Made by a program: the position numbers and the translations under genes. Below, piece by piece: positions 1 to 53,865 of a DNA stretch of 53,865 nt (positions are counted from its first letter, which is position 1; each line of letters begins with the position of its first letter). The stretch is from a virus. The stretch is taken from IMG/VR virus record IMGVR_UViG_3300029267_001426, positions 1-53,865 of that record. One strand, 5' to 3'. Below the pieces are notes generated by a model. It was not told the origin of the DNA and made no database searches. It worked only from the letters and a program-made list of their open reading frames with translations.

Positions 1-144
1 AACAGGATGCCCTGGACCAGCTGGCAGCTGAAACCCATCCCAGCCTGGCAGACCTCGCCCTGGCATCCCTTGACCTGGTCAAGGATGACCTGGCCCAGGT
101 CCCTGTCATCTTTGCTGGCCAAGCCCTGGCCACCTTTTCCAAGC
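1..144. repeat. Terminal direct repeat, copy 1 (exact copy of 53722..53865)
   Basis: Bases 1..144 recur exactly as the last 144 bases of the window, giving a unit length of 53,721 bp. The repeat lies inside an ORF, so it reads as the overlap of a circular or permuted assembly. Confidence 0.95.
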
Positions 145-32399: not shown

Positions 32400-33787
32400 G
32401 CTGCCCTGCCCCTTAACCAGACCCAGTTTTCAAGGGCCTGACATGCGTGATCATTCCCATCAGCTGGGTCATCCTCAAAGGACCCATCCCTGTTTTCTTT
32501 GTTCCTATAGCCTGATGTGATTTCATCCAGCAGGCTGACACATCTGGGATGAATCATCAAGGTCCTGACCCCTTGGCCATCCTTGATCAATGCCCTGGTT
32601 TCCCTGATGGCTGCCTTTCTTGTGCTGCTTTCCCCCTTGACCTTTCTGGCCATCCAATTCCTGGCAGGGATGTCAGCCTGGGTCAATCGTCGACGCAGGG
32701 CCACCGCTTCATGGGCCACTGCTGCCAGTTCTGGGAACCTGACCCCATGTGCCCTCAGCCAGATGGACCTGTCCTGATACCTGGTGAATGTTTCTGGCAT
32801 GGGGGCCTTGTGGCCTGCCAGCCTGTGTTCATGTTCCAAGGCTGCCCAGGGGGACTGTTCATAAAGTCTGGTCTGGATGTCCCTGATGGTCTGTTCCTCC
32901 AATTGCCTTGATCTGTAATTCTCAGCAAAGACCAGGGCCTTGGAACCCTGTTTCTGAACCCAGACCACTGCCCTGGGATCAATGTAGCCATCGTCAATGC
33001 CCAGTTCAAAGGGCAGCTGGGGATCATAGTCCATCTGGTCTGTGACATTGGCATCACTGAAATCAGCATAGACCAGACCGCTGACTGGTATATACCAGTC
33101 GCCATCCACCCAGGCCCTTTGCAGTCTGGGTGGCAAGGTGGCCAGCATGTCCCAGTAGCCCTGGTCAAGGTGGGGATTGTCCCTGGGCAAGGCGCGCACA
33201 AAGGCGAATTCATGTTCATGCCCAGCCATGTGGTCTGGCATCTGCTTTTCAACAAAAAGGGACCTGACCCACTTGAAATATTTGCCATCAGGGTTAGTGG
33301 CCCCAGCCAGAAAGACGTCACTGATGCCTGGCCATCTTAAGGACCCTCTGAGAATGTCAAAGACCTTGGGTGGGTTTTTGGTCAGTTCATCTATGCCCAT
33401 CCCTGCGAATTCTACAGATTGATACTTGCTGGGGTCATCCAGGTTTCTTAACAGAATCCCGCCCCCACCATAGCAGTCATGCAAGAACCAGCCCAGGCCA
33501 TCTGCTTTCGTGGTCCCCAAGTAGCCCAGCCAGTCAGGGAATTCAGCCAGCTTGGAAATCTGCCTGTCCTTAAGGCTTGGGTAGTCCTCGCAAAACAGCC
33601 CCACCCTGACCCTTTCATGGCCCTGCTGTGCCCACAGCAGCAGCCGCCGCACAAGATACCACCTTAGCCAGAATGATTTCCCAGGACCCCTGGCCCCACC
33701 GAATAAAGTGTATTTGTGGGTGTCAGCTGCCCTGGTGGCATCCATCTGCTTTGTGGTGAATGTGCAAAGGTCAGAAAGTTTGACCAT
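32396..33787 (-). CDS. terL: Terminase large subunit
   Basis: Walker A LFGGARGPGKS, with a nuclease-half pattern downstream. TGATG overlap with terS. It lies just upstream of the portal gene. Confidence 0.9.
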   Translation of the reverse strand: MVKLSDLCTFTTKQMDATRAADTHKYTLFGGARGPGKSFWLRWYLVRRLLLWAQQGHERVRVGLFCEDYPSLKDRQISKLAEFPDWLGYLGTTKADGLGWFLHDCYGGGGILLRNLDDPSKYQSVEFAGMGIDELTKNPPKVFDILRGSLRWPGISDVFLAGATNPDGKYFKWVRSLFVEKQMPDHMAGHEHEFAFVRALPRDNPHLDQGYWDMLATLPPRLQRAWVDGDWYIPVSGLVYADFSDANVTDQMDYDPQLPFELGIDDGYIDPRAVVWVQKQGSKALVFAENYRSRQLEEQTIRDIQTRLYEQSPWAALEHEHRLAGHKAPMPETFTRYQDRSIWLRAHGVRFPELAAVAHEAVALRRRLTQADIPARNWMARKVKGESSTRKAAIRETRALIKDGQGVRTLMIHPRCVSLLDEITSGYRNKENRDGSFEDDPADGNDHACQALENWVWLRGRAA

Positions 33788-34203
33788 CAGAAATCCACTG
33801 TGATCAAGGGGCTGCCCTTGATGTCCACTTGGGTTCTTTCAGTGTATAGGCCAAGTAGCTTGGCCTCGTCTTGTAAGATTCTCAGCTTGAATTCTGGGTC
33901 CTGGCTTTTGCGTCTCAGTTCTCGCCGGGCTGCTATGGCCTGGCCTAGTGCCGACACCATGCATTCATCTGTTATTTCAGCCAGCCTGGCCCTTGCCTTG
34001 TATATGTAATTTCTGGCCTGCCTGTGCCCCAGGTCCCATTCTTTGGAAATAAAAGGAACCAGGGCCTGGTCATCCCAGCCATCACATATCAGCTGAAAGA
34101 CAGTATTGATCCGCTTGGCCAATTCCCCATTGGTGGCCCTTTTTTTCTTGGGCTGGTCCTGGTCCTTGCCCTTGCCCTTGTCCTTGTCAGCCATTGCCCC
34201 CAT
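33787..34203 (-). CDS. terS: Terminase small subunit
   Basis: 138 aa with a basic N terminus and a helical DNA-binding-like core (RQARNYIYKARARL). It lies immediately upstream of terL. Confidence 0.65.
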   Translation of the reverse strand: MGAMADKDKGKGKDQDQPKKKRATNGELAKRINTVFQLICDGWDDQALVPFISKEWDLGHRQARNYIYKARARLAEITDECMVSALGQAIAARRELRRKSQDPEFKLRILQDEAKLLGLYTERTQVDIKGSPLITVDF

Positions 34204-34206
34204 CCA

Positions 34207-34941
34207 TCACTTGATGGCCACCCAGCCACAGAAATTCATCCACCTCCAGAAACAGTCAACAGCCCTGAACCCAGCCTGGGTCAGCAGCTGTTCATTCCAG
34301 GCAGCTGTCACAGGGACCAGGACCCCTGACAGGGCCAGCCGCTTTCTTTCAATGTCATCCTGGGAATAGCCATTCTGGGCCTTGAATCCGTGGTATAGGT
34401 CCACCATCAGGCCATTGACCTGGGCAGTGGCCCCCAGGACCTTTTCCACCAGGATGAATGCCCCACCATCTTGCAAGCTGTCATAGACGTCCTGGACCAG
34501 CTGCTGTCTACATTCCAGGGGGACAAACATCATAGTCAGGATGGACTGGATGACACTGGCCATGCAAGGGGGGAAATCCTTGGCCAGGTCCAGGTCCTTG
34601 ATTCTGACACAAGGGCTGGGGCCATCCACAAAGCCCCCAAAACGATCGCGCAAGACGTCAAGCATAGGGGGGCTGGTTTCCACCAGGACAAAGCTGTTGG
34701 TCATTCCCCACAGGTCCACCAGGGGGGCAATGCTGGCCCCTCGACTAGCCCCCAGGTCCACTATGTCAGTGTGGGGCATCCTGAACCTGACAGCCAGGTC
34801 ATAGCATGCGCGCCGCATCACATCCAGCTGGGGGATGGACCTGGCCAGCATGTCATCAAAAACCTGGGTGACCTGGTCATCAAAGGCCCAGCGGTCTGGA
34901 CTGTAGCCTGTGTCAGTTGGGTGATCCTGTGAATGATCCAT
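34207..34941 (-). CDS. cmoA: CmoA-like carboxy-S-adenosylmethionine (Cx-SAM) synthase
   Basis: 244 aa, collinear end to end with E. coli CmoA as I recall it: WAFDDQVTQVFDDMLARSIPQ, motif I VDLGASRG, FILVEK, YHGFKAQNGYSQDDIERKR, and C-terminal WMNFCGWVAIK. The start at ATG 34941 comes after the upstream TAG. The longer track ORF is rejected. Confidence 0.8.
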   Translation of the reverse strand: MDHSQDHPTDTGYSPDRWAFDDQVTQVFDDMLARSIPQLDVMRRACYDLAVRFRMPHTDIVDLGASRGASIAPLVDLWGMTNSFVLVETSPPMLDVLRDRFGGFVDGPSPCVRIKDLDLAKDFPPCMASVIQSILTMMFVPLECRQQLVQDVYDSLQDGGAFILVEKVLGATAQVNGLMVDLYHGFKAQNGYSQDDIERKRLALSGVLVPVTAAWNEQLLTQAGFRAVDCFWRWMNFCGWVAIK

Positions 34942-34954
34942 TGATCCTGTCCCC

Positions 34955-36358
34955 CTATGCCTGGACCCCTGAAAAGGCCCTGATGAATTCTGCCCTATAG
35001 AATCGGGCTGGACTGGGCAGTCTGTTTCTGATGGCAGCCTTGATGCCCATCCCATCCTGGAAAGCCAGCTTGGGCCTTTCACAGATGTGGTCAGGCAGAA
35101 TGCCCCTATAGGCCAGGGACAGGACTGCCTTTTCCTTTTCGTGCTCAGCAGGCCCCCTGACAGCTGCCCTGGAAAGGCCCAGGGCATACTGAACCAAGCC
35201 CTGGGACAAAAAGGGTAGTCTACATTCTACACCATAGGCCATGAATGCTTTGTTAGCCCTGGCGAAATTTTTCCTATGCTGCCCCAAGAAAAGGCCCCGC
35301 CGATAGGCATGCCAGCCAGATGAAATGACCCCATGATAGCTGAAACCATAGCTGGCCCACAGTTCGTCTGAACCCTCCCCAGAATAGGTCACCTTGAACC
35401 CATCCTGGGCCATGGCCTTGGCCAAGTGTAGGCAGGGCCAGCCAATTTCCACTTGGGCCTTGTGGGGCATTTCAATGATCTGGACCACCCTGGCCAGGTC
35501 ATCCCTACCAGGGCAAGGGACTGGGATTTCTTTCAGATGGACACCCAGCTGGCCGCAGATGTGCCGAGCAGCAGCCAGGTCCTTTGAATGGGGATTATAG
35601 ACAGCAGTATAGGCAGTCACATCCCTGAAATGCTGGACCAGATGCCATAGAACAGCCGATGAATCAATGCCCCCAGAAATCAGGCAGCAGACAGGGACAT
35701 CAGACAAGGTTCTGGCCAGGACCCCATCCTTGACCAATGTCTTGACCTGGACTGATGCCTGGACCAGGTCATCTGGCAGCCTGCCTGGCTGAATCTCAGC
35801 AAAGGGCCTGGCAATCATCCCATCCTTGTGGGCAGACACCACATAGCCAGGCTGAACCCAGGAAACAGACCTGGGATGGCAGCCCATGGCCAGCAGGGCC
35901 TTGATTTCAGATGCAAAGCAGAAAGGCTGCTGCTGGCTGATGTGGACTGGGATTTCCCCAAAGATGTCCCTGGCCACAAAGACCTGGCCATCTGCCCAGG
36001 ACCAGGCCATGGCAAACATCCCATCAAACTTGGGCAGGGCATCCAGGCCCCATTCATTCAAAGCCGCGGCTATAATCTCAGTGTCCCCAGTGGTCCTGAA
36101 CTGGTGGCCGAGCTCGAGCAATTCAGCCTTGATCTGGGCACAGTTCCACAGTTCCCCATTATAGACCAGGTCCAGGCCATCCCTGTGGAATGGCTGGTCT
36201 GACCTGGGCAAGGGGTCCAGAATAGCCAGCCTGGTGGCCCCCAGAAAGGCTGACCCAGACTTGACCAGCCCCTGGCCATCAGGCCCCCTGTGGACCAAGG
36301 CAGCCATGCCCTGTAGGGTGGCCTTTTCTGACCTGAACCCGCCGACTATACCACACAT
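34955..36358 (-). CDS. Asparagine synthetase B-type glutamine amidotransferase / amidoligase (as a separate gene from the internal ATG)
   Basis: MCGIVGG (Ntn Cys2), HRGPDGQG, RLAILD, YNGELWN, GMFAMAW, PP-loop CLISGGIDSS and YSGEGSDELW. AAGGTGG lies 7 nt before ATG 36358. Confidence 0.7.
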   Translation of the reverse strand: MCGIVGGFRSEKATLQGMAALVHRGPDGQGLVKSGSAFLGATRLAILDPLPRSDQPFHRDGLDLVYNGELWNCAQIKAELLELGHQFRTTGDTEIIAAALNEWGLDALPKFDGMFAMAWSWADGQVFVARDIFGEIPVHISQQQPFCFASEIKALLAMGCHPRSVSWVQPGYVVSAHKDGMIARPFAEIQPGRLPDDLVQASVQVKTLVKDGVLARTLSDVPVCCLISGGIDSSAVLWHLVQHFRDVTAYTAVYNPHSKDLAAARHICGQLGVHLKEIPVPCPGRDDLARVVQIIEMPHKAQVEIGWPCLHLAKAMAQDGFKVTYSGEGSDELWASYGFSYHGVISSGWHAYRRGLFLGQHRKNFARANKAFMAYGVECRLPFLSQGLVQYALGLSRAAVRGPAEHEKEKAVLSLAYRGILPDHICERPKLAFQDGMGIKAAIRNRLPSPARFYRAEFIRAFSGVQA

Positions 36359-37522
36359 CAGACAGCCACCTTGGCCAGGACCTGGTCCCTGATCGCCGAT
36401 GCAAGATGGCACATCATAAGGGGGGGGGACTGCCCTGCCCAGCCTTTCCCATCGCTTATTATAGGACCCTGTCAGCTGGAAATCTGCTGGGAAAGAACAG
36501 ATGGCCATCACTTCTGGGATGGTAAACTTGCGCCGCCTGGGGGATGTGGGCTGGCCAGCCTGGTCCTGGTCCCTTTCTATGTATAGATGGCCTGGGCCTG
36601 CCTGCCTGACTGTGGGGGCTGGCCTGCTGGTGAAATCCCCCATGCCCCAGCTGCCCCCTGTGTCCTCGATTGCCCGGACAGTCCCAGCCAGGGCATCAGC
36701 CACAGTATAATAGTAGGGCAAGGGGCTGGGCCAGGCATGGTCCACATCCAGGTCATCCCTGATGCCCTGGAAAAATAGCCTTTCCCTGGACTGGGGGACA
36801 CCCAGCCACTGGGCATCAAGTTTGACCACCTTGACCCTATAGCCGCAATCTTTCAGCAGGGCCAGAATCTGCAAGAAATAACCCTTGGCCTTGCCCCTGA
36901 CCAGCCCTGGGACATTCTCAGCCAAGAATACCTTGGGCCTGATGCCCTTGACCAGCCTGGCATATTCCCAGAACAGGTCATCTGTTCTTTGCTGGGTGTC
37001 AGAATATGCTTTCACCTTGCCCCAGTCCTTTTCCCTGTGGCCAATGACTGAAAAGGACGCACATGGGGGGCTGCCATCCATCAGGTCAAGGTCACCCTGC
37101 CCCAGGCCGATGGCATCAAGGATTTCAGCAGCTGTGACCTGTCTGATGTCCCTGGTGTCAAGGATGCTGCCTGGGTGATTCAGCCTGTAGACCTCTTGGG
37201 CAGCTGGGACAAATTCATTGGCCCATAAGACCTTGAACCCAGCCATGCGCAGGCCGAGACAAGAACCACCAGCCCCAGAAAAGGTGGAAATGGCCCTGAA
37301 CCCATTCCAGGGGACCTGTTCAATGTCTGCCATGCTGGGCAGCTGGTATGGTGGCTTGAATGTCCTGTCTTTTCCAGGCACTATTTCACCCTCTAGCCAA
37401 TAGTGTGATAGATTGTCCCCACAGATGCCCCCAGCCAAGATGGCTGGGCTGGGCTGTCTGTCCAGGTCAAAACGCTCCACCATGGGTGTCATCCCATTGG
37501 GGTTATGGTGACAAAGAATCAT
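34955..37522 (-). CDS. Continuous ORF as assembled: C5-cytosine DNA methyltransferase-like domain fused in frame to the AsnB-like domain
   Basis: There is no stop between the two halves in the given sequence. ATG 37522 is in an ATGA overlap with the ParB-like gene. Alternative starts are 37540 and 37333. The fusion depends on the 9-nt homopolymer at 36420..36428. Confidence 0.6.
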   Translation of the reverse strand: MILCHHNPNGMTPMVERFDLDRQPSPAILAGGICGDNLSHYWLEGEIVPGKDRTFKPPYQLPSMADIEQVPWNGFRAISTFSGAGGSCLGLRMAGFKVLWANEFVPAAQEVYRLNHPGSILDTRDIRQVTAAEILDAIGLGQGDLDLMDGSPPCASFSVIGHREKDWGKVKAYSDTQQRTDDLFWEYARLVKGIRPKVFLAENVPGLVRGKAKGYFLQILALLKDCGYRVKVVKLDAQWLGVPQSRERLFFQGIRDDLDVDHAWPSPLPYYYTVADALAGTVRAIEDTGGSWGMGDFTSRPAPTVRQAGPGHLYIERDQDQAGQPTSPRRRKFTIPEVMAICSFPADFQLTGSYNKRWERLGRAVPPPYDVPSCIGDQGPGPGQGGCLMCGIVGGFRSEKATLQGMAALVHRGPDGQGLVKSGSAFLGATRLAILDPLPRSDQPFHRDGLDLVYNGELWNCAQIKAELLELGHQFRTTGDTEIIAAALNEWGLDALPKFDGMFAMAWSWADGQVFVARDIFGEIPVHISQQQPFCFASEIKALLAMGCHPRSVSWVQPGYVVSAHKDGMIARPFAEIQPGRLPDDLVQASVQVKTLVKDGVLARTLSDVPVCCLISGGIDSSAVLWHLVQHFRDVTAYTAVYNPHSKDLAAARHICGQLGVHLKEIPVPCPGRDDLARVVQIIEMPHKAQVEIGWPCLHLAKAMAQDGFKVTYSGEGSDELWASYGFSYHGVISSGWHAYRRGLFLGQHRKNFARANKAFMAYGVECRLPFLSQGLVQYALGLSRAAVRGPAEHEKEKAVLSLAYRGILPDHICERPKLAFQDGMGIKAAIRNRLPSPARFYRAEFIRAFSGVQA
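36358..37522 (-). CDS. C5-cytosine DNA methyltransferase-like enzyme (predicted carboxymethyltransferase). The stand-alone form needs an 8-nt homopolymer.
   Basis: Motifs: I FSGAGGSCLG, IV SPPCASFS, VI LAENVPG, VIII QSRERLF, IX RKFTIPEVMAICSFPADF and X LGRAVPP. With one C fewer the C terminus reads AVPPLMMCHLASAIRDQVLAKVAV and stops at TGA 36358..36360. Confidence 0.6.
36420..36428. repeat. G9 (C9 on the coding strand) homopolymer inside MTase motif X
   Basis: This is the longest G/C run I saw in the window. It encodes the PPP of GRAVPPP. Confidence 0.9.
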
Positions 37523-38124
37523 CTGGGCTGCCCAGACCATTCATAGCCACAGCTGGGGCATCTGTAGTCTGTTTCCAGTTCATCACCATATTCCTGAAAG
37601 GCCTCTGGGGCCTGGTCCTGTTCAGCCAGCCGCCGAAAAAGGGCCAGGTCATCAGTGTCCACTGTCACAGGCAGCTGGTCTGCTGTGTTCAAGGTTTCCA
37701 AGAACTGGGCATAATTGGCATCATAGACCCTGCTGATGTCCAGCTGGGTGACATCCCCACCAGCCATGACCAGGCTGTTGTGATCGATGCTATAGGCCCA
37801 GGCAGCATGTTCACTGGCAGCATCCACACCAAAGATGACCGGGACTGCCCAGTCATCAGATTCCTGTTCAAGCAAGATGCCCCTGGGCACAGGGTCCCCC
37901 TGGCCTTTCATCCAAGTCAGGGCCTGGATTCTGCCATTGCCAGCCACTATGCCACCCTTGCCACCATTCAGGGTGGGTTCCCACTTGGGTGGGTCCTTGA
38001 ACCCATGCCGCTTGATTGAATCAATTATGGAACCAAGGTCATGCAGTTTGACATTCTGGGCAAACAGCAGGCATGTGGCAAGTGGGACATATTCAAGGCG
38101 CAATTTCTCAGCAGGGCTGGACAA
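37519..38124 (-). CDS. ParB N-terminal (ParB/Srx-like nuclease) domain protein with C-terminal Zn-ribbon
   Basis: LRLEYVPLATCLL...NVKLHDLGSIIDSIKRHGF...VAGNGRIQAL matches the ParB-like fold pattern. TTG start 7 nt after AAAGGA. The C terminus has CPSCGYEW. Confidence 0.7.
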   Translation of the reverse strand: MSSPAEKLRLEYVPLATCLLFAQNVKLHDLGSIIDSIKRHGFKDPPKWEPTLNGGKGGIVAGNGRIQALTWMKGQGDPVPRGILLEQESDDWAVPVIFGVDAASEHAAWAYSIDHNSLVMAGGDVTQLDISRVYDANYAQFLETLNTADQLPVTVDTDDLALFRRLAEQDQAPEAFQEYGDELETDYRCPSCGYEWSGQPR

Positions 38125-47111: not shown

Positions 47112-47589
47112 AAACACCATCATTGAACTGGCTGGGGAAAAGACTGCTGCTGAACTGGCTGCCCTGTTCACAAAGAATGGCACGCCAAGGACTGCCCGCA
47201 GTGTATACCAGAAAGCCAGGTCCCTGGGTGTCAGATTCAGGGGGGAACCTGAACCCTGGGATGATTCTGAACTGGACGTCTTGAATGCCTGGGCAGGCAA
47301 GGAAAGCCCCAAGGCCATCGCCGGCCGATTGCCCACCAGGACCAAGGCTGATGTCTTGCACATGGCCAGGTTCCTTGACCTGGACCTGACTGTCCTGGCC
47401 ACCTTTGAAAAGTCTGAAAGGGTCTGGGGCAGGGTCCCTGCTGAGAAAGCCCAGGATGTGGCAGATGCCCTGAATGGCCTGGCCAAGTTTTTTTTGGCTG
47501 AACAGAAAGGGGACTGCCTGGTCCAGACCATCCTTTATGCCTGGGAACAGGCCCAGCTGGTCCAGCTGCCCAGAAAGGGGGACCTGTGA
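47083..47589 (+). CDS. Hypothetical protein, possible HTH regulator (168 aa)
   Basis: AGAAAGGA lies 5 nt before the ATG. It overlaps the upstream gene by 29 nt. Confidence 0.55.
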   Translation: MSLEYSALDENTIIELAGEKTAAELAALFTKNGTPRTARSVYQKARSLGVRFRGEPEPWDDSELDVLNAWAGKESPKAIAGRLPTRTKADVLHMARFLDLDLTVLATFEKSERVWGRVPAEKAQDVADALNGLAKFFLAEQKGDCLVQTILYAWEQAQLVQLPRKGDL

Positions 47590-51698: not shown

Positions 51699-51877
51699 AA
51701 GCCCTAGTGGGCTTGATTGACTGGCTGGGGGACACCCTGGCCAGTCATCTTTCCAAGCCCCCAGAACCAGGTCAGGTCACTGACAAGGAAAAAAAACAGC
51801 ATCAAGCCTGGGCAGCCCTGGGCAGATGTGCCAAAAAAGATGACCAGCCCCAGGCTGATGAAAGGAATAGGAAATGA
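51689..51877 (+). CDS. Small hypothetical protein (62 aa)
   Basis: GAGGA lies 6 nt before the ATG. ATGA overlap with the downstream gene. Confidence 0.45.
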   Translation: MFLKALVGLIDWLGDTLASHLSKPPEPGQVTDKEKKQHQAWAALGRCAKKDDQPQADERNRK

Positions 51878-53629: not shown

Positions 53630-53865
53630 ACCGACCAAGACGGATGAATCCACTGCCCAGGCCCCTGTGGCAGACCTGGACCAGCAGGCCGCTGATGCTG
53701 CTGCTGATTTCCTGGCTGCTGAACAGGATGCCCTGGACCAGCTGGCAGCTGAAACCCATCCCAGCCTGGCAGACCTCGCCCTGGCATCCCTTGACCTGGT
53801 CAAGGATGACCTGGCCCAGGTCCCTGTCATCTTTGCTGGCCAAGCCCTGGCCACCTTTTCCAAGC
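53622..53865 (+). CDS. 5' part of the junction-spanning hypothetical gene (continues at base 145 of the unit, i.e. feature 3..752)
   Basis: ATGACTGA overlap with the RHH gene stop. The frame is open to the window end, and the last 144 nt are the terminal repeat. Confidence 0.7.
   Translation, partial: MTEPTKTDESTAQAPVADLDQQAADAAADFLAAEQDALDQLAAETHPSLADLALASLDLVKDDLAQVPVIFAGQALATFSK
53722..53865. repeat. Terminal direct repeat, copy 2
   Basis: Exact copy of 1..144. Confidence 0.95.

Follow-up and report, generated by a model that had tools for sequence, protein, structure and literature searches.

Length variation of a cytosine run at the 3′ end of cmoX in an uncultured phage: a probable hypermutable repeat in a cytosine-hypermodification operon

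We analysed the DNA of an uncultured phage, IMG/VR virus record IMGVR_UViG_3300029267_001426, over its full length of 53,865 nucleotides (nt; hereafter the window), with a focus on a run of nine cytosines (C9) at 36420..36428 on the minus strand (G9 on the plus strand). The run lies where the 3′ end of a candidate DNA cytosine C5-carboxymethyltransferase gene, cmoX, meets the gene of an AsnB-type glutamine-dependent amidoligase, and in other assemblies of the same phage it is eight bases long (C8). Our preferred explanation, which we regard as probable, is that this run of a single base, at the 3′ end of cmoX within a phage operon for cytosine hypermodification, is hypermutable, and that the window holds a +1 slippage variant with the pathway OFF or reduced. 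C8 is almost certainly the native two-gene state, judging from its register with the CmoX crystal structure 8YF3, from conservation in homologues and from the split arrangement of relatives. It would specify two translationally coupled genes, a CmoX with its terminal helix and an amidoligase starting with Met-Cys. From this state the C9 of the window would have arisen by +1 slippage, and replication slippage would also make the change reversible. In C9 the last 20 residues of CmoX, which follow the cofactor-binding Arg350-Ala-Val-Pro-Pro, are exchanged for a Pro/Gly-rich stretch, and the frame continues into the amidoligase.

Two readings of the tract

On the coding strand the junction reads GGC AGG GCA GTC CCC CCC CCT TAT GAT GTG, the nine C (36428..36420) comprising the last base of the Val352 codon, the codons of Pro353 and Pro354 and the start of the next cmoX codon. 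As the window stands, an open reading frame (ORF) of 861 amino acids (aa) is open over 34955..37540 (-). It reads ...GRAVPPPYDVPSCIGDQGPGPGQGGCL-MCGIVGG...; a C5 DNA methyltransferase domain (PF00145, E 6.5e-49) is followed by GATase_6/7 and Asn_synthase domains, and the two parts are connected by the 21-codon linker PYDVPSCIGDQGPGPGQGGCL (36359..36421, -), which has a counterpart in none of the homologues. When one C is deleted in silico, the first protein ends ...GRAVPPLMMCHLASAIRDQVLAKVAV* with a TGA at 36360..36358. This stop codon overlaps the amidoligase start (ATG 36358..36356) in the sequence TGATG (36356..36360, -), and a Shine-Dalgarno-like AAGGTGG is located at 36366..36372 (-), 7 nt before the ATG. 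The nine-base run, both frames, the overlap and the upstream AAGGTGG had been pointed out in an earlier reading made from the letters without database searches (the sequence-only reading), and all of them are present. With C7 or C10, cmoX would stop at ...VPP(P)L*. The tract is a coding-region mononucleotide run of at least eight bases in which a change of ±1 shifts the frame, as expected of a contingency locus.

No other G/C run of at least 8 bases occurs in the window; the remaining runs of that size are one A8 (at 51789) and one T8 (at 47488). Since about 30 G8/C8 matches would be expected from dinucleotide-preserving shuffles and this locus alone is observed, the phage genome avoids long G/C runs, with the tract as the exception.

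The C8 frame restores a conserved CmoX C terminus

By its sequence the methyltransferase is CmoX, a cytosine C5-carboxymethyltransferase whose catalytic activity is predicted. The gene body, residues 1-354 counted from the MVERF start, occupies 36422..37483 (-) and is followed, in the C8 frame only, by the native tail L355..V374 and its TGA (36358..36420, -), a conserved terminal helix that is out of frame in the window. Three in-frame ATG codons, at 37483 (MVERF), 37522 and 37540, may serve as start, and the annotation pipelines differ accordingly (842, 855 and 861 aa for the fused product). The SPPC catalytic motif is found as DGSPPCASFS, with S138, P139, P140 and C141 invariant in 40 homologues. 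An Arg takes the position of the motif X Asn: Arg350 in GRAVPP aligns, with identical numbering, to GRMVPP of 8YF3, the crystal structure of SpCmoX and the best PDB sequence match of the methyltransferase (E 3.3e-57). Residue numbers coincide between the C8 protein and 8YF3 at R350, V352, P353, P354, L355, M356 and M357; the alignment pairs ...ERLGRAVPPLMMCHLASAIRDQVLAK with ...ERVGRMVPPLMMKAIAENIYKEVLSK, and the C8 tail can be followed to within one residue of the 8YF3 C-terminus. At the other end of the protein, similarity to SpCmoX starts only at residue 43 from MVERF, and residues 1-40 are modelled with low confidence.

Conservation and structure prediction likewise point to C8 as the native frame. 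Among the 40 homologues, W345-P354 is invariant except for A351, and A351, M356, M357, A361, R365 and D366 are at least 90% conserved. The AlphaFold model of the C8 protein has a mean predicted local distance difference test score (pLDDT) of 81.8, with a helix at 354-373 at pLDDT ~94-98, and its best PDB fold match is again 8YF3. The suggestion of the sequence-only reading that the C8 frame yields a proper C5-methyltransferase C terminus is thus well supported. An intact in-frame motif X helix is present in the three C8 contigs (L001, L002, L003) and absent from the window, in which residues 355-374 are replaced.

Related loci carry two separate genes

We found 32 IMG/VR loci with the amidoligase, 20 of them with cmoX immediately upstream. 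All 20 have two separate genes: the stop of cmoX and the start of the next gene share 1 nt (TGATG or TAATG), the genes overlap by 13 or 19 nt, or a gap of 0-4 nt separates them; the TGATG-type 1-nt overlap of the C8 frame is also seen in 8 distinct related loci. In every adjacent locus bar one (SRAVPP), cmoX ends ...WER.GR[AS]VPPxMM.... On the amidoligase side, the start codon (ATG or GTG) is directly followed by Cys in 29/29 loci read there, and stand-alone amidoligase hits that reach the N-terminus begin to align at the M-C of MCGIVGG, with their own residue 1 or 2. Two coupled genes had been one of the two arrangements considered in the sequence-only reading, which also stated the need for a free N-terminal Cys; the relatives are in line with both.

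The same order of methyltransferase, glutamine amidotransferase and methyltransferase is found in a cultured phage, Streptomyces phage TurkishDelight (NC_073473, gp123/gp124/gp125), whose amidoligase is 49% identical to that of the window and whose CmoX ends ...WERIGRAVPPVMMSHIAAAVRD.... It differs from the window in its unfused genes, set 2 nt apart with GTG as start codon, and in having ParB-like genes upstream; its VPP is spelled GTT CCG CCG, hence without a homopolymer. A megablast of the 5-kb region against GenBank phages gave no match. Homopolymers as a general trait of these operons were rejected: across 34 related loci, 230 kb in total, the only runs that reach 8 bases are A-runs, in two AT-rich loci.

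An exhaustive HMMER search with the fusion against 1.84 billion cluster representatives returned no intact fused orthologue. The single further two-domain protein that it yielded, P0002, is known from five or more contigs. The similarity of P0002 to CmoX homologues ends at about residue 300, motif IX and WERLGR are missing, and in its DNA the AVPPVMM... helix stands in another frame, ending in the ancestral TGATG. We therefore rejected P0002 as a true fused orthologue and regard it as a deletion remnant. The comparison of fused and split orthologues that had been suggested as a check on the fusion thus came out as split, in the 20 adjacent loci and in TurkishDelight alike. A conserved potential for fusion was rejected as well, as the amidoligase frame has no stop codon as far back as VPP in 12/21 loci, a share at chance level.

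Two further architectures were noted on the way. Region 1037..5149 of contig L006 (Logan SRR31980946; also L007-L009) belongs to a related phage in which a decayed cmoX that has lost motif IX and WERLGR is fused in frame to the amidoligase, an allele seen in several sequencing runs. There, cmoA comes next, and then a gene whose product combines domains of chorismate mutase and DAHP synthase and may supply prephenate for the synthesis of carboxy-S-adenosylmethionine (Cx-SAM). A 986-aa amidoligase homologue on a 36,732-nt contig of the Joint Genome Institute (JGI; P0003) carries a C-terminal radical SAM domain (PF04055), and its N-terminal Met-Cys is free.

C8 and C9 occur in otherwise identical assemblies

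Variant contigs were located by exact protein look-ups and then compared at the DNA level. Exact-pattern scans for the tract flanks in metagenome_contigs and viral_contigs gave no match; these contigs are evidently not in those collections. The 90%-identity cluster of the fused protein consists of four proteins (842, 855, 374 and 467 aa), of which the 374-aa member is identical to the C8 reading and the 467-aa member is the amidoligase. C9 is found in the window (53,865 nt), in ENA ERZ27256778 (53,862 nt) and in Logan SRR14699967 (27,665 nt), C8 in JGI 3300017989 (22,640 nt), ENA ERZ27256770 (5,462 nt) and JGI 3300029258 (5,039 nt). These two lengths are the only ones on record; products of C7 or C10, which would probably fall into the same cluster, are not there.

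L001, a C8 contig from JGI, aligns to the window over 20,285 nt with 0 mismatches and 1 gap, and this gap is the tract. Five other 7-base runs in the span (two G7, two A7 and one T7) are unchanged. The six contigs, three with C8 and three with C9, thus display what is expected of a contingency locus, a length polymorphism between otherwise identical genomes. C9 was reproduced by three pipelines (JGI, ENA MEGAHIT and Logan), twice in a complete circular contig of 53.86 kb, which argues against a simple assembler glitch. An exact 144-nt terminal direct repeat at 1..144 and 53722..53865, together with the circular permutation of the ENA 53,862-nt contig relative to the window, indicates that the assembly is circular and complete, at 53,721 bp.

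One sample, for which JGI and ENA each produced an assembly (contigs L002, L003, L046 and L047), has contig breaks next to the tract in both. The upstream contigs of ERZ27256770 and 3300029258 stop 123 and 157 nt past it (ends 36297 and 36263), and the two downstream contigs share a start at 36288. This position is 140 nt away from the first C, or about one k-mer (k=141). The break distances of 131 and 140 nt from the first C are near, not equal to, the prediction for a branch at k=141, and the breaks are suggestive of mixed lengths or of read trouble at this place. Taken together, we consider it likely that C8 and C9 represent a real polymorphism at the DNA level, in a hypermutable tract.

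Probable effect of C9 on the modification pathway

The motif X helix of C5-methyltransferases is part of the cofactor-binding domain. Because of this role, and because the replaced helix is so well conserved, CmoX is most likely inactive or unstable in C9. CmoX would make the carboxymethyl handle that the amidoligase requires and, as it would supply the amidoligase substrate and no second C5-methyltransferase was found in this genome, C9 would mean that the whole modification is OFF or strongly reduced. The contrast between C8 and C9 is then likely to be one between modified and unmodified or weakly modified DNA, rather than between carbamoylmethyl and carboxymethyl products. The amidoligase may still be made in C9 by internal initiation from its own AAGGTGG-N7-ATG; if CmoX is lost, it would be left without substrate. 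C9 may also be leaky: if tRNA-Pro slipped by +1 on CCC-C, the exact ...VPPLMM... reading and the TGATG coupling would be restored.

A number of observations speak against this picture of a switching, hypermutable tract. None of 24 related cmoX loci has more than 6 C at the site, so that the tract is lineage-specific, and codon usage alone can explain it: CCG accounts for 2% of the phage's Pro codons (it is used freely for Pro in related cmoX loci), and with the local preferences for CCC (39% of Pro), GTC (49% of Val) and CTN (79% of Leu), V-P-P-L would be spelled as C8 with a probability of ~0.06. The origin of the tract thus needs no selection, and the case for selection of a switch is weakened. 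C9 is moreover the consensus of a complete circular genome, which would be unexpected if loss of the modification were costly, and the ability to form a fusion is not conserved (12/21 loci open). The polymorphism is seen at the consensus level of assemblies, some of the six may share reads (the read sets number at least two, probably three or more), and the loss of CmoX is itself inferred from conservation and structure.

Alternative explanations

Several other explanations for the two lengths have to be weighed. A technical artefact, i.e. a genome that is uniformly C8 with C9 introduced by indel errors during library amplification, sequencing or assembly, is unlikely. In its favour, homopolymers of 8-9 bases are a classic site of such errors, the lone difference between the contigs falls exactly on the tract, and the breaks 123-157 nt past it in both pipelines mark the region as hard to assemble. 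However, a wrong short-read consensus would require more than half of the reads to be in error, C9 comes from three pipelines with two complete circular contigs and C8 from three other assemblies, and the 7-base runs in the compared 20 kb show no differences. The sequence-only reading had left the choice between assembly error and slippage tract undecided; as both lengths were recovered repeatedly and without any other difference, real variation is now favoured over a one-off assembler error. Recoding, with C9 as the genomic state and CmoX made by programmed +1 ribosomal frameshifting or by transcriptional slippage on the C-run, is a quite improbable explanation. The nine-base run matches the length of the RNA-DNA hybrid, which is nine bases, and a +1 slip of tRNA-Pro on CCC-C, a documented +1-prone site (PMC7577736), would give the exact C8 protein with termination at TGATG. 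Yet C8 exists at the DNA level, and slippage would at most make C9 leaky. We also found no stimulatory RNA structure downstream of the tract (z-score +0.56; 143/200 shuffles fold at least as well) and no significant Rfam match, and the run occurs in no relative, so that nothing points to a programmed frameshift signal.

The sequence-only reading had further proposed a chemical switch, in which C8 leads to the carbamoylmethyl product and C9 combines an active CmoX with a glutaminase-dead fused amidoligase, leaving the carboxymethyl product. The fusion does bury the Cys that class II amidotransferases need as a free N-terminal nucleophile, and a Met-Cys or Val-Cys start is general in the related loci (29/29) and among the stand-alone homologues of the exhaustive search. 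We nevertheless hold this toggle to be highly improbable: the helix that CmoX loses in C9 is found in 8YF3 and conserved among the 40 homologues, which makes CmoX, the first and substrate-supplying step, the likelier casualty. Nor does the amidoligase have to be dead in C9, since its Shine-Dalgarno sequence and ATG survive inside the fused ORF and separate synthesis is possible; in addition, some Ntn amidotransferases, such as PurF of B. subtilis, remove propeptides. Least probable of all, and exceedingly so, is a genuine functional fusion in which the methyltransferase-amidoligase of 842-861 aa is the intended protein. The ORF is open in C9 and P0002 provides a second two-domain protein, but the latter is a deletion remnant with its terminal helix out of frame, no intact fused orthologue was found among the cluster representatives, in the 20 adjacent loci or in TurkishDelight, the linker is the conserved helix read out of frame, and the openness of the amidoligase frame to VPP is at chance level. 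A hypermutable tract with C8 as the native state thus remains our preferred explanation.

Neighbouring genes and genome composition

The amidoligase (467 aa, starting MCGIVGG; 34955..36358, -) combines an N-terminal Cys glutaminase domain with a synthetase domain bearing the SGGIDS PP-loop. It matches 1CT9 (E 2e-39), and Cys2, R-L-A, N-G-E, D-T-E and SGGIDS are all there; C2, R43, N67-G68-E69, D92 and S228-G-G-x-D-S are invariant in 6 amidoligase homologues. Its Cys directly follows the initiator Met in the split state and is internal in the C9 fusion. The product is presumably the primary amide of 5-carboxymethylcytosine.

Two genes downstream of cmoX, thus in the association expected for this pathway, lies a cmoA candidate (carboxy-S-adenosylmethionine synthase, 244 aa; 34207..34941, -). 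It matches TIGR00740 over the full model length with 139.6 bits, below the cut-off of 193.3, and E. coli CmoA (4GEK) with E 4e-28; judged by these matches, it is clearly homologous to CmoA but divergent. A slightly divergent strain of the same phage is represented by an ENA contig (ERZ27256790) that covers 33374..35882 of the window and ends short of the C-run; it has two single-nucleotide polymorphisms (34327 and 33817) and lacks 6 nt, in frame, of the small gene downstream of cmoA (window 34164..34169).

The composition of the window is unusual in several respects. CpG is extremely depleted for a phage with 57% GC, with a symmetrised CG odds ratio of 0.15 (0.11-0.22 in every 6-kb bin); the odds ratios of TA and CA/TG are 0.35 and 1.63. 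CCGG, GCGC, CGCG, TCGA and ACGT each occur at 0.11-0.20 of expectation, and GGCC is 2.4-fold over-represented. The depletion of CpG could be caused by deamination decay at modified CpG or by avoidance of restriction sites. The scarce CGs cluster in CTCG/CGAG (92 vs 16 expected) and CGCG (78 vs 19 expected). GAAG/CTTC is also rare, with 14 occurrences where a second-order Markov model predicts 479, as are GTAC (7 observed vs ~202 expected) and GAG/CTC (0.16 of expectation).

Relation to known systems

The operon of the window is a member of the published CmoA/CmoX/ligase systems, known from the CmoA/CmoX/CmoY cytosine hypermodification of Synechococcus phage S-B43 (Yang et al. 2025, PMC12783734), in which the Arg at the motif X position (SpCmoX R350, HhaI N304) binds the carboxymethyl group. 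It shares with that system the SPPC motif, the Arg in place of the motif X Asn, an adjacent cmoA and the gene of an ATP-dependent amide ligase in the operon. Unlike in S-B43, the ligase of the window is AsnB-type with a glutamine-hydrolysing domain; it resembles the second-largest ligase cluster (A0A7T0Q3R0) of the same study, which the authors did not obtain in soluble form. Homopolymer variation is not described there.

For the tract itself, the A9 repeat in the agt gene of phage T2 appears, by analogy, to be the closest precedent. The reversion rate of this repeat exceeds that of a point mutation ~1000-fold, and the repeat switches DNA glucosylation between hosts with TgvAB and hosts with McrA/BC (Gomez, Barrick and Waters, bioRxiv 10.1101/2025.10.21.683753). 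Both are 9-base runs inside a phage DNA-hypermodification gene that is frameshifted by ±1 slippage, and the benefit proposed in both cases is a hedge, as the modification blocks some restriction systems and is the target of others. In contrast to agt, the tract of the window is made of G/C and sits at the extreme 3′ end, truncating the last helix only and fusing the gene to the next one; reversion has been measured for agt, whereas the tract of the window is known from a consensus-level polymorphism between metagenome assemblies. A further parallel is offered by the Type IIG enzyme cj0031 of C. jejuni, a phase-variable methyltransferase with a polyG tract and an example from the phasevarions (PMC4889913). 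There, too, a G/C homopolymer in the coding sequence shifts the frame of a DNA-modifying enzyme, but the element of the window is phage-borne and its putative role is anti-restriction, not gene regulation.

Implications

That the C-run is a selected contingency locus, i.e. an adaptive switch with C8 suited to hosts with modification-blocked restriction and C9 to hosts with type IV-like, modification-dependent defences, is a tentative idea that we consider rather doubtful. A leaky C9 might turn the tract into a rheostat of modification density. Independently of selection, the 842-861-aa 'fusion protein' in public protein collections is a frameshift product and not a natural two-domain enzyme, and constructs for expression of the operon, whose AsnB-type ligase branch is uncharacterised so far, should be built with C8. 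Provided that the variation in length is biological, the hypermodification pathway of an uncultured phage occurs in two natural states that are one slippage-prone base apart. Phage contingency loci, recently proposed from T-even phages in the laboratory, would then extend to populations in the environment and to the carboxymethyl-cytosine pathway; were the locus indeed selected, it would be the first case of phase-variable cytosine carboxymethyl hypermodification in a natural population, and an environmental counterpart of the laboratory T2 agt repeat.

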